A DNA stretch of 64,000 bases from Escherichia coli (GCF_011045215.1 NZ_CP049201.1); one strand, 5' to 3'; numbered from the stretch's first letter, positions 7,294 through 52,867 are shown. Program-made: numbers and translations. The notes: generated from the sequence alone by a model not told the origin.

Positions 7294-8835
<1,542 letters not shown>

Positions 8836-8903
8836 CCTTAAAGAAGCGTTCTTTGTAGTGCTCACACAGATTGTCTGATGAAAATGAGCAGTAAAACCTC
8901 TAC

Positions 8904-8980
<77 letters not shown>

Positions 8981-9022
8981 AATTTGCACGGCAAATTTGA
9001 AGAGGTTTTAACTACATGTTAT

Positions 9023-9098
9023 GGGGCTATAGCTCAGCTGGGAGAGCGCCTGCTTTGCACGCAGGAGGTCTGCGGTTCGATCCCGCATAGCTCCACCA
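9023..9098 (+). tRNA. alaU: tRNA-Ala (TGC)
   Basis: GGGGCTATAGCTCAGCTGGGAGAGCGCCTGCTTTGCACGCAGGAGGTCTGCGGTTCGATCCCGCATAGCTCCACCA; 76 nt with G3:U70. Confidence 0.97.
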
Positions 9099-9161
9099 TC
9101 TCTGTAGTGATTAAATAAAAAATACTTCAGAGTGTACCTGCAAAGGTTCACTGCGAAGTTT

Positions 9162-9174
9162 TGCTCTTTAAAAA
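9162..9174 (+). promoter_or_regulatory. 16S-23S spacer boxA element
   Basis: TGCTCTTTAAAAA in the spacer downstream of tRNA-Ala, at the usual position of the second boxA. Confidence 0.6.
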
Positions 9175-9272
9175 TCTGGATCAAGCTGAAAATTGAAACA
9201 CTGAACAACGAAAGTTGTTCGTGAGTCTCTCAAATTTTCGCAACTCTGAAGTGAAACATCTTCGGGTTGTGA

Positions 9273-12175
<2,903 letters not shown>

Positions 12176-49379: not shown

Positions 49380-51347
49380 ATGGGTATTTTCTCCATTGCT
49401 AACCAACATATTCGCTTTGCGGTAAAACTGGCGACCGCCATTGTACTGGCGCTGTTTGTTGGCTTTCACTTCCAGCTGGAAACGCCACGCTGGGCGGTAC
49501 TGACAGCGGCGATTGTTGCCGCCGGTCCGGCCTTTGCTGCGGGAGGTGAACCGTATTCTGGCGCTATTCGCTATCGTGGCTTTTTGCGCATCATCGGCAC
49601 ATTTATTGGCTGTATTGCTGGACTGGTGATCATCATTGCGATGATCCGCGCACCATTATTGATGATTCTGGTGTGCTGTATCTGGGCCGGTTTTTGTACC
49701 TGGATATCCTCGCTGGTACGAATAGAAAACTCGTATGCGTGGGGGCTGGCCGGTTATACCGCGCTGATCATTGTGATCACCATTCAGCCGGAACCATTGC
49801 TTACGCCGCAGTTTGCCGTCGAACGTTGTAGCGAGATCGTTATCGGTATTGTGTGTGCGATTATGGCGGATTTGCTCTTTTCTCCGCGATCGATCAAACA
49901 AGAAGTGGATCGAGAGCTGGAAAGTTTGCTGGTCGCGCAATATCAATTAATGCAACTCTGTATCAAGCATGGCGATGGTGAAGTTGTCGATAAAGCCTGG
50001 GGCGACTTGGTGCGACGCACCACGGCGCTACAAGGCATGCGCAGCAACCTGAATATGGAATCTTCCCGCTGGGCGCGGGCCAATCGACGTTTAAAAGCGA
50101 TCAATACGCTATCGCTGACGCTGATTACCCAATCCTGCGAAACTTATCTTATTCAGAATACGCGCCCGGAATTGATCACTGATACTTTCCGCGAATTTTT
50201 TGACACGCCGGTAGAAACCGCGCAGGACGTTCACAAGCAGCTCAAACGCCTGCGGAGAGTTATCGCCTGGACCGGGGAACGGGAAACGCCTGTCACCATT
50301 TATAGCTGGGTCGCGGCGGCAACGCGTTATCAGCTTCTCAAGCGCGGCGTTATCAGTAACACAAAAATCAACGCCACCGAAGAAGAGATCCTGCAAGGCG
50401 AACCGGAAGTAAAAGTAGAGTCAGCCGAACGTCATCATGCAATGGTTAACTTCTGGCGAACCACACTTTCCTGCATTCTGGGCACGCTTTTCTGGCTGTG
50501 GACGGGCTGGACTTCCGGCAGTGGTGCAATGGTGATGATTGCGGTAGTGACGTCACTGGCAATGCGTTTGCCGAATCCACGCATGGTGGCGATCGACTTT
50601 ATCTACGGGACGCTGGCCGCGCTGCCGTTAGGGCTGCTCTACTTTTTGGTGATTATCCCTAATACCCAACAGAGCATGTTGCTGCTGTGTATTAGCCTGG
50701 CAGTGCTGGGATTCTTCCTCGGTATAGAAGTACAGAAACGGCGACTGGGCTCGATGGGGGCACTGGCCAGCACCATAAATATTATCGTGCTGGATAACCC
50801 GATGACTTTCCATTTCAGTCAGTTTCTCGACAGCGCATTAGGGCAAATCGTCGGCTGTGTGCTCGCGTTCACCGTTATTTTGCTGGTGCGGGATAAATCG
50901 CGCGACAGGACTGGACGTGTACTGCTTAATCAGTTTGTTTCTGCCGCTGTTTCCGCGATGACTACCAATGTGGCACGTCGTAAAGAGAACCACCTCCCGG
51001 CACTTTATCAGCAGCTGTTTTTGCTGATGAATAAGTTCCCAGGGGATTTGCCGAAATTTCGCCTGGCGCTGACGATGATTATCGCGCACCAGCGCCTGCG
51101 TGATGCGCCGATCCCGGTTAACGAGGATTTATCAGCGTTTCACCGACAAATGCGCCGCACAGCAGACCATGTGATATCTGCCCGTAGCGATGATAAACGT
51201 CGTCGGTACTTTGGTCAGTTGCTGGAAGAACTTGAAATCTACCAGGAAAAGCTACGCATCTGGCAAGCGCCACCGCAGGTGACGGAACCGGTTCATCGGC
51301 TGGCGGGGATGCTCCATAAGTATCAACATGCGTTGACCGATAGTTAA
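49380..51347 (+). CDS. aaeB: Aromatic carboxylic acid efflux pump subunit AaeB
   Basis: 655-aa polytopic membrane protein (fusaric-acid-resistance-like family). Confidence 0.93.
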
Positions 51348-51350
51348 GTC

Positions 51351-51378
51351 AAAACCGACGCCAAAAGCGTCGGTTTTT
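51351..51378 (+). terminator. Rho-independent terminator downstream of aaeB
   Basis: AAAACCGACGC-CAAAA-GCGTCGGTTTTT. Confidence 0.8.
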
Positions 51379-51437
51379 CATGGCTATACTTAGCGATGCA
51401 CGGCAGAACTCGCCGCGAAACGTGACGGTGGCAACAG

Positions 51438-51710
51438 ATGAATATTTATACCTTTGATTTTGATGAGATTGAGAGTCAGGAGGATTTTTATCGTGACTTT
51501 AGCCAAACCTTTGGTCTGGCGAAAGATAAGGTGCGCGATCTCGACTCACTATGGGATGTGTTAATGAACGATGTCCTGCCGCTACCACTTGAGATTGAAT
51601 TTGTTCATCTGGGAGAGAAAACGCGTCGCCGTTTTGGCGCGTTAATATTGCTGTTTGATGAGGCAGAGGAAGAGCTGGAAGGGCATTTGCGTTTTAATGT
51701 TCGTCATTAG
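51438..51710 (+). CDS. yhcO: Barstar-like protein YhcO
   Basis: 90-aa acidic [49 protein letters not shown]...; barstar-family immunity-protein fold recognised from sequence. Confidence 0.8.
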
Positions 51711-51713
51711 CGC

Positions 51714-51740
51714 AAAAAAAAGCCCCCGAACCGGGGGCAA
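51714..51740. terminator. Bidirectional terminator between convergent yhcO and yhcN
   Basis: AAAAAAAAGCCCCCGAACCGGGGGC hairpin flanked by A-run on one side (T-run on the other strand). Confidence 0.7.
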
Positions 51741-51765
51741 TATCGTCGGACAAGACGATGAGGGT

Positions 51766-52029
51766 TTATTTGTACAGTTCAGCCGTAGCGTGCCAGGTGT
51801 CACCGCTACGAGCTTCAGTAATCTGGTAGGCCGTTGCGCCTTTCTCTTCCGCTTTTTTGTTCAGCATTTCACGTATATCCATTGGCGAAGACGCCACACC
51901 ACTTACGGATACGGTCCCGATTGCTTCACGGTTTTGTGCTTGTGCAGCATCAATGGAGTCGGCAGCGAATGCACCGAAAGAGAGAACAGAAAGTACGCTT
52001 AATGCAGCAACAGTGGTTTTGATTTTCAT
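51766..52029 (-). CDS. yhcN: Stress-induced periplasmic protein YhcN (DUF1471/YdgH-BhsA family)
   Basis: 87-aa ORF with signal peptide MKIKTTVAALSVLSVLSFGAFA. Confidence 0.88.
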   Translation of the reverse strand: MKIKTTVAALSVLSVLSFGAFAADSIDAAQAQNREAIGTVSVSGVASSPMDIREMLNKKAEEKGATAYQITEARSGDTWHATAELYK

Positions 52030-52393
52030 GATTTTTACCTCGACATAATCTTTTTGCTGGGTCTTTGTTTCGTGACCCTTATCACAAAATCAAGTATACA
52101 CTAATTATTGGGCTAATTAATACCACGCTAACTGTTTCTGTTGATACTAAGTGTTAAAAATGTGAATTTTAATAACAAAAAAGAATTAAAAATACGGTTA
52201 TTTATCTTTAATTCTAGTATTTTCAATTAGATAATGAATTTTGCATAATGTGCTTTTTTTACCGTATGTATTCATTGTGTGAATGACATGTCGCAGTAAA
52301 ACGCACTATTCGTTAAATTAATCGCAGGGGAAAGCAGGGGGTTGAGAGGGATAAGCAACATTTTCCCCGCCGCCAGAAGCGACGGGGCAGAGA

Positions 52394-52867
<474 letters not shown>

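Follow-up and report, generated by a model that had tools for sequence, protein, structure and literature searches.

The window analysed here, a single stretch of 64,000 nucleotides of Escherichia coli DNA, carries the short gene yhcO between aaeB and yhcN (Table 1), and the RefSeq record for the same DNA labels it "yhcO: barstar family protein" with these two genes on either side. The gene is already known, as it has been annotated, its product crystallised twice and found to be non-essential. However, we found no functional study of YhcO in the literature, where it figures in transcriptome lists and in one genomic-context module only. The first-pass annotation had described a small, acidic protein of the barstar family, and both points were confirmed: YhcO has 90 aa and a pI of 4.48 (21 D+E versus 10 K+R), and its sole recognised domain is Pfam PF01337, Barstar (E value of 2.1e-9; 37.6 bits against a cut-off of 23.4). 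The structure PDB 2CX6, deposited as "Hypothetical protein yhcO" of E. coli, is YhcO over 90/90 residues, and that of the Salmonella orthologue, 5F4C, shares 77-79% identity with it. The AF2 model that had been proposed as a check (pLDDT of 95.8; Foldseek TM of 0.99 against 2cx6) shows the barstar alpha/beta fold, with a three-stranded parallel sheet and four helices, and superimposes on the Bacillus barstar chains with a TM of 0.80-0.82 and an rmsd of about 2 A. A Foldseek search of the PDB with this model returned no credible structural relatives besides barstar, and hhalign joins YhcO to barstar with a probability of 98.9% and an E value of 2.3e-17. Profile, fold and motif thus place YhcO in the barstar family, and the initial observation is correct, as the ORF, Pfam, PDB, fold and RefSeq evidence agree. 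Neither the NCBIfam models nor those of PADLOC matched YhcO (the latter did not match the Yersinia RNase described below either), and an Rfam search over 51000-52400 returned only sub-threshold, terminator-like chance matches.

Table 1. Genes and sequence elements at the yhcO locus, numbered from the first letter of the window
Feature	Position	Strand	Remarks
aaeB	49380..51347	+	Upstream neighbour and synteny anchor
Predicted intrinsic terminator of aaeB (hairpin + U run)	51351..51379	+	-18.8 kcal/mol, z -5.6; 0/200 shuffles as stable
CTATACTTA, putative sigma-S-type extended -10 element	51384..51392	+	46-54 nt upstream of the ATG
GGTGG, putative weak Shine-Dalgarno-like element	51427..51431	+	6 nt before the ATG
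yhcO CDS	51438..51710	+	ATG-to-TAG ORF, 90 aa plus stop; barstar-family RNase-inhibitor homologue
Binding-segment codons 30-48 of yhcO	51525..51581	+	Homologous to the barnase-binding loop, helix 2 and next loop of barstar (hhalign register)
GC-rich hairpin between convergent yhcO and yhcN	51722..51738	.	Terminator scan; folds of -15.1 and -14.8 kcal/mol
yhcN	51766..52029	-	Convergent downstream neighbour; Pfam PF07338, E 6.4e-23

Of the 5426 complete E. coli genomes searched, all but one (5425) carry the gene segment. Its G+C content is 43% (aaeB, 52%; yhcN and argR, 48%; window, 51%), and synteny indicates vertical inheritance. A location on mobile elements was considered and discarded, as the plasmid and phage matches were mislabelled chromosomes or very large chromosomal fragments. 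YhcO is also encoded on a 241-bp scaffold of Corynebacterium lipophiloflavum (100% identity) and on a 422-bp contig of Hydrogenophaga intermedia (71% identity), and these tiny contigs are almost certainly enterobacterial contamination of the assemblies.

Signals around yhcO and the search for a toxin gene

The predicted terminator downstream of aaeB, which is kept in the genera without an aldehyde dehydrogenase gene at this position, separates yhcO from the aaeXAB operon. Right after it lies a sigma-S-type -10 box that was spotted by eye and proved, when tested, to be both unique and conserved: CTATACTTA is unique in the window (chance expectation, 0.15), and its CTATACT follows the aaeB terminator at the same position in Escherichia, Klebsiella, and Pseudocitrobacter. 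We take CTATACTTA to resemble the sigma-S extended -10 consensus and consider it a candidate promoter element of yhcO; a generic sigma-70 promoter scan found nothing upstream of the gene. This conserved box agrees with the strong RpoS dependence that has been published, with a wild-type/rpoS expression ratio of 214 for yhcO in stationary-phase EDL933 (PMC2907692). The gene is also induced by a rapid acid shift (PMC2270276) and activated by LldR (PMC10272880). A weak candidate (8/14) for the LldR box of the latter study, CTTTGGTCTGGCGAAAG (51509-51525), is located inside the yhcO coding sequence and not upstream of it. Closer to the start codon, "ggtggc" is retained in the Escherichia loci. On the other side of the gene, the hairpin shared with yhcN has a U8 tail on the minus strand, as a terminator of yhcN, and an A8 tract upstream on the plus strand. 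The gap between aaeB and yhcO measures only 90 bp in E. coli, while in Escherichia albertii (9212-9937 of locus L011) it is filled by a 177-bp unit repeated 4.1 times with 95% matches, and the GCCTGATGCGCTACGCTTATCAGGCCTAC found in this repeat presumably belongs with the REP palindromes, which it resembles.

The first-pass annotation had named aaeB and yhcN as the neighbours and reported no toxin gene beside yhcO, and the ORF list, the Pfam scan and the tblastn searches all agree with this; the yhcN product is a periplasmic YdgH/BhsA/McbA-like stress protein and not a toxin. Its accompanying statement, that no partner ORF of 60 aa or more occurs, holds in general but fails for two antisense ORFs, one of 115 aa with a TTG start inside yhcN and one of 83 aa inside aaeB. 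The other mechanical ORFs overlapping the flanks of yhcO are shorter (25 aa on the plus strand, 38 and 53 aa on the minus strand), and the small-ORF search that had been suggested, run on the flanks for ORFs of at least 20 aa, gave no candidate for a cognate toxin. Nothing significant was obtained in a Pfam scan of five flank ORFs, the 83-aa ORF reaching an E value of 0.18 against PF18529, below the cut-off. Two small upstream ORFs, at 51380-51457 (+) and 51390-51506 (-), are preserved in Escherichia alone, among near-identical DNA sequences, and both are broken in Klebsiella and Pseudocitrobacter; the one on the plus strand begins on the putative -10 box, upstream of any likely transcript start. 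We rejected a hidden toxin beside yhcO, as there is no significant Pfam match and the upstream ORFs are not conserved beyond Escherichia.

The search was then widened. Four microbial RNases used as tblastn probes (barnase, binase, RNase Sa, and RNase T1, with manually entered sequences) detected no barnase-like sequence in the 64-kb window, the best E value being 0.089. The RNase genes of Yersinia and Pantoea had no match in the 5,426 E. coli genomes in a distant blastn search, at the nucleotide level. An RNase regained on a plasmid was likewise rejected, since the tblastn matches were only to Bacillus, Clostridium, and mislabelled Proteus chromosomes. No member of the barnase/T1 family is known among the catalogued RNases of E. 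coli K-12.

Orthologous loci with and without the RNase gene

Relatives of YhcO are few, as a search of 1.84 billion representative proteins returned only 112 at an E value of 1e-3 or lower. The nearest ones outside the enterobacteria are metagenomic (38-45% identity), and the gene for each of them directly follows a PF00545 "Ribonuclease" gene. From a scan of one genome per species we took the 80 best of 259 related loci and annotated them by tblastn, using the genes around yhcO in the window as queries and bearing in mind that the loci and sequences compared are phylogenetically non-independent. Among these 80, all of the 36 RNase-paired loci have the RNase gene ending 2-7 nt before the ATG of the yhcO-like gene. 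They belong to Yersinia, Serratia, Edwardsiella, Xenorhabdus, Regiella, Enterobacillus, and related MAGs, and their inhibitors, 50-57% identical to YhcO, are also encoded downstream of aaeXAB. Where enough upstream sequence was available, the order is tldD, aaeR, aaeXAB, aldehyde dehydrogenase, RNase, yhcO-like gene, darP (on the minus strand), and pmbA, while in Xenorhabdus, Regiella, and one MAG the pair comes directly after tldD. The chromosomal pairs (Yersinia, Serratia, Edwardsiella, Xenorhabdus, and Proteus) share with yhcO the strand and the upstream tldD-aaeR-aaeXAB-aldehyde dehydrogenase neighbourhood, and in these species the yhcO-like gene is translationally coupled to the RNase gene, not to the dehydrogenase gene. 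One record's annotation calls the Yersinia pestis inhibitor "YPO3690".

The RNase of the paired loci is, by sequence, a genuine barnase homologue. It matches barnase PDB 1A2P with an E value of about 8e-37 in an alignment of 101 residues that brings the WREAD, R..DR, and DHY catalytic stretches into register. It scores 55-58 bits in Pfam (PF00545) and carries an N-terminal hydrophobic leader (signal peptide). Its best 120 homologues come from Yersiniaceae, Morganellaceae, Budviciaceae, and Erwiniaceae, Erwinia amylovora included, and Escherichia, Salmonella, and Klebsiella are absent among them.

At the Enterobacteriaceae-type loci, by comparison, the RNase gene was found in 0 of 41 (among the same best 80 of 259), even at a tblastn E value below 1. 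These orphan loci come from Escherichia, Salmonella, Citrobacter, Klebsiella, Enterobacter, Lelliottia, Buttiauxella, Kosakonia, Cedecea, Trabulsiella, and others, with Erwinia mallotivora grouped among them, and they follow the order tldD, aaeR, aaeXAB, aldehyde dehydrogenase (in most genera), yhcO, yhcN (minus strand), argR, and mdh. In the genera that keep the dehydrogenase, its stop codon is located some 20-60 nt before yhcO. As the RNase gene is present in 36/36 loci of the sister families and in 0/41 of the Enterobacteriaceae type, yhcO appears to be a true orphan, an inhibitor gene left behind by deletion of the RNase gene. We therefore consider it very probable that yhcO is the positional orthologue of the barstar gene of an ancestral barnase/barstar operon, from which the RNase gene was cleanly excised in the lineage of the Enterobacteriaceae. 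The exact branch of the deletion can be placed only approximately, because Erwinia mallotivora is of the orphan type, yet Erwiniaceae carry RNase/barstar pairs. The "orphan" of the earlier description, offered there as one half of an either/or with a non-immunity role, thereby gains a concrete meaning; the either/or itself is supported and stands.

Other differences were seen in the same region. A gene for an aldehyde dehydrogenase of about 500 aa (PF00171, E value of 1e-170) is located between aaeB and yhcO or the RNase gene in most Enterobacterales (at about 8400-9970 in loci L014-L052 and 7896-9413 in L063), and it is missing in Escherichia (51348-51437 of the window), Salmonella, Klebsiella, and Pseudocitrobacter. 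The gap of Salmonella arizonae retains a 3' remnant of it (15 aa with 60% identity; 16 nt with 94%), and the losses suggest independent deletions. Downstream of yhcO, most Enterobacteriaceae have two tandem yhcN paralogues (at about 10330-11000 in L015-L052; 50-65% and 63-84% identity to E. coli YhcN), and a single yhcN was found in the five Escherichia loci, in two of the three of Citrobacter amalonaticus and in one Enterobacteriaceae MAG. A rearrangement breakpoint falls right after yhcO (51711 onward in the window versus about 10300-12500 in L051-L088), so that the inhibitor gene is followed by darP (minus strand) and pmbA in the paired species and by yhcN, argR, and mdh in the Enterobacteriaceae; darP (yjgA) and pmbA are presumably elsewhere on the E. 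coli chromosome. Last, barnase/barstar pairs of Erwiniaceae (Pantoea sp. A4 and an Erwiniaceae bacterium; 6001-6712 of L092 and 6001-6760 of L093 and L094) occupy unrelated loci, beside srfB/virulence-factor genes and near a RES-Xre toxin-antitoxin pair. Their barstars would represent a different lineage of the pair, as they have an FGNNLDALWD motif but a divergent C-terminal half.

Selection on yhcO and remodelling of the RNase-binding segment

The gene does not behave as a relic in decay. An intact ORF of 89-92 codons is present in 41/41 orphan-type loci, from more than 15 genera, and the median dN/dS amounts to 0.13 for the orphan clade, 0.11 for its RNase-paired counterpart and about 0.04 within Escherichia, values calculated by the simple pairwise Nei-Gojobori method that are approximate because dS is near saturation between genera. 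Residues 63-87 (R63-N87) are under even tighter constraint in the orphan clade than in the paired one (0.035 versus 0.073). These substitution rates indicate that yhcO is kept under purifying selection.

In barstar, the acidic residues D35, D39, E76, and E80, together with the tryptophan W38, fill the active site of barnase. The hhalign profile alignment places YhcO residues D36, W39, D40, E75, and E79 opposite D35, W38, D39, E76, and E80, all five are invariant in both clades, and D36 and D40 are so across 50 homologues. YhcO therefore has the helix-2 DxxxD motif described for these proteins (PMC3482391) together with the acidic contacts of helix 4. Apart from this DxxWD helix and the two glutamates, it resembles the barstar of Bacillus amyloliquefaciens (PF01337; PDB 1BRS, 1A19, and 1BTA) in fold, profile, length (about 90 aa), and acidity, but the identity between them is only about 20%. 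Barstar residues Y29, Y30, G31, N33, T42, G43, and W44 are replaced by D30, K31, V32, D34, M43, N44, and D45 in YhcO, which has one extra residue in the following loop, and there is no barnase gene beside yhcO. An RNase gene directly upstream, present in 36/36 sister-family loci, is a feature of genomic context and not a requirement for membership of the barstar family.

The comparison with the chromosomal pairs of the sister families locates the changes more precisely. The C-terminal half of these orthologues is nearly identical to that of YhcO, RRRFGA(I/L)(I/V)LLF(E/D)EAEEEL.G.LRFN, while the invariant FGxNLDALWD...TG-G of the paired proteins corresponds to (K/Q)VxDLDSLWD plus an extra residue in the orphan clade, and the type of motif and the presence of the RNase are perfectly associated in our sample (36/36 and 41/41). 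Codons 30-48 hold, besides the invariant D36, W39, and D40, the orphan-clade-specific K31, V32, D34, S37, extra residue 44, and L47. Counting as replaced those sites that are at least 85% conserved in the paired orthologues and have the same residue in at most 10% of the orphan clade, we found seven in total, with five of them within residues 29-48 (Fisher p of 0.005-0.008): F31 to K/Q, G32 to V, A37 to S, a one-residue insertion at 44, and I47 to L. In addition, N34 has mostly become D, and T43, invariant in the paired proteins, is variable in the orphan clade. Several of the new residues are fixed or nearly so in the latter (V32 in 34/34; S37, L47, and P48 in 33/34 each), and the dN/dS of residues 27-48 is about twofold higher there than in the paired clade (0.20 versus 0.11). 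This pattern suggests that the old specificity was lost first and that constraint then set in anew.

Possible roles for an inhibitor homologue without its RNase

The explanation that we favour, although tentatively and with somewhat less than even confidence, is that YhcO is an orphan barstar kept as standing immunity against imported barnase-type toxins. The gene very probably is what remains of an old chromosomal barnase/barstar operon, its inhibitor half, which stayed behind once the RNase gene had been cleanly deleted in an ancestor of the Enterobacteriaceae. It is transcribed alone, in E. coli from the putative sigma-S-type promoter after the aaeB terminator, in line with the published RpoS dependence, and has since been kept under purifying selection. 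As the barstar fold, the acidic residues and the tryptophan are retained, YhcO most likely still acts as a stoichiometric 1:1 inhibitor that plugs the active site of a basic barnase-type RNase. The RNase-recognising loop and helix were remodelled upon the loss of the RNase, which would have moved the specificity away from the ancestral partner. The RNase once made by the cell itself cannot be the present target. Since no such RNase is adjacent or detectable at the nucleotide level elsewhere in E. coli, the favoured targets would be the barnase-domain toxins injected by competitors, met mainly in dense stationary-phase populations. Rhs/T6SS effectors of the barnase type with barstar-type immunity proteins are known from Salmonella and more widely (PMC10469887, PMC3482391), and protection from the toxins of neighbouring bacteria has been proposed as a plausible benefit of orphan immunity genes (PMC3482391).

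Like other orphan immunity genes (orphan cdiI, those of the Rhs/T6SS arrays and stand-alone colicin immunity genes), yhcO persists without a toxin and has orthologues elsewhere that are paired with the cognate toxin. Unlike them, as they are usually accessory, strain variable, located in toxin islands and fast diversifying, it belongs to the core genome and the RpoS regulon, occurs as a single copy at the same locus throughout the family and is under purifying selection, and its lost partner was a Sec-type secreted enzyme and not a delivered polymorphic toxin. A universal and positionally fixed gene without diversifying selection counts against immunity, and the replacement or variability of the ancestral-partner positions (F31, G32, A37, the gap at 44, I47, N34, and T43) fits with a loss of the former specificity. 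The likeness to type II antitoxins is that of a small acidic protein neutralising an RNase by direct binding, but yhcO has no adjacent toxin gene and YhcO no DNA-binding domain, and the ancestral order, with the secreted toxin first and then the inhibitor, is the barnase/barstar layout and not that of a toxin-antitoxin module.

The most serious alternative, which we regard as possible but less probable than immunity, is that YhcO was re-tooled for an endogenous basic RNA- or DNA-binding protein or for another RNase, with a role in stationary phase or acid stress. It would account for the concentration of the replaced sites in the binding segment (five of seven, several then fixed), for the tighter constraint on residues 63-87 and for a core gene under stress regulation by RpoS, acid, and LldR. 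It would also agree with the report that E. coli laboratory strains do not tolerate Bacillus barnase unless Bacillus barstar is coexpressed (PMC8403359). All of these strains carry yhcO, and so YhcO is either no inhibitor of Bacillus barnase or absent from growing cells. A narrower form of this idea, in which YhcO is no longer a barnase inhibitor and its rebuilt and frozen binding face makes it a sigma-S-controlled acidic "plug" for another endogenous basic protein, seems to us rather unlikely. The frozen face may consist of V32, S37, L47, P48, the extra loop residue and the almost invariant helix, and the targets may be toxins of the RelE/YoeB type (a barnase-related fold class) or a stationary-phase RNA- or DNA-binding protein; if true, it would document the recruitment of an immunity protein into core stress physiology. 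Against any such re-tooling, the residues that were kept are exactly the acids with which barstar contacts barnase, barstar is the sole structural relative in the fold search, and the accessible part of the E. coli atlas (Hu 2009) links yhcO by genomic context only, with no physical partner.

The remaining explanations have far less in their favour. The persistence of an unbroken pair, with the toxin in an unannotated small ORF nearby or elsewhere in the E. coli genome, is very improbable. The two small upstream ORFs could be invoked for it, as could the fact that the genome was read over 64 kb and the E. coli collection searched at the nucleotide level, where divergent toxins could escape, but the flank ORFs have neither a Pfam match nor conservation in Klebsiella and Pseudocitrobacter, the window holds no barnase-like sequence, and two enterobacterial barnase genes had no blastn match in 5,426 genomes, all in keeping with the known RNases of K-12. 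We give even less credence to a functionless remnant, mere debris awaiting loss. Although no cognate RNase and no phenotype reports were found, and the gene is listed as non-essential in the same atlas (Hu 2009; PMC2672614), such a reading is contradicted by the selection data (41/41 intact ORFs and the dN/dS of about 0.13, or 0.04 within Escherichia), the near universality in E. coli (5425/5426) and the conserved promoter-like element with strong RpoS-dependent expression. Equally improbable is a function for yhcO within the aaeXAB efflux/aldehyde dehydrogenase cluster. The order aaeXAB-(aldehyde dehydrogenase)-yhcO is conserved across the Enterobacterales, and a genomic-context module joins yhcO with aaeA, aaeB, aaeX, and aldehyde dehydrogenases in the same source (PMC2672614). 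However, synteny is expected among close families without functional coupling, yhcO has a strong terminator before it and a promoter-like element of its own, the coupling in the sister families is to the RNase gene and not to the dehydrogenase gene, and the fold is that of a protein inhibitor, neither an enzyme nor part of a transporter.

The gene itself is ordinary, and it is the evolutionary reconstruction that is mildly useful. As far as the searched literature shows, the deletion history, the remodelling of the interface and the promoter are undescribed, and they represent an incremental advance. The published statement that E. coli has no barstar gene (PMC8403359) overlooked yhcO, present in essentially every E. 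coli genome, and is corrected here. The "function unknown" of YhcO can now be turned into sharp questions, namely whether it inhibits RNases of the barnase type, either enterobacterial or delivered by Rhs systems, and what it binds in stationary phase. More generally, the locus amounts to a natural experiment, and a clean one: throughout a whole family of bacteria, a very tight protein pair has been reduced to a single partner, and this survivor shows purifying selection, a remodelled interface and what appears to be its own stress promoter. It also serves as a model of the orphaning of immunity proteins and of their possible recruitment to new roles.
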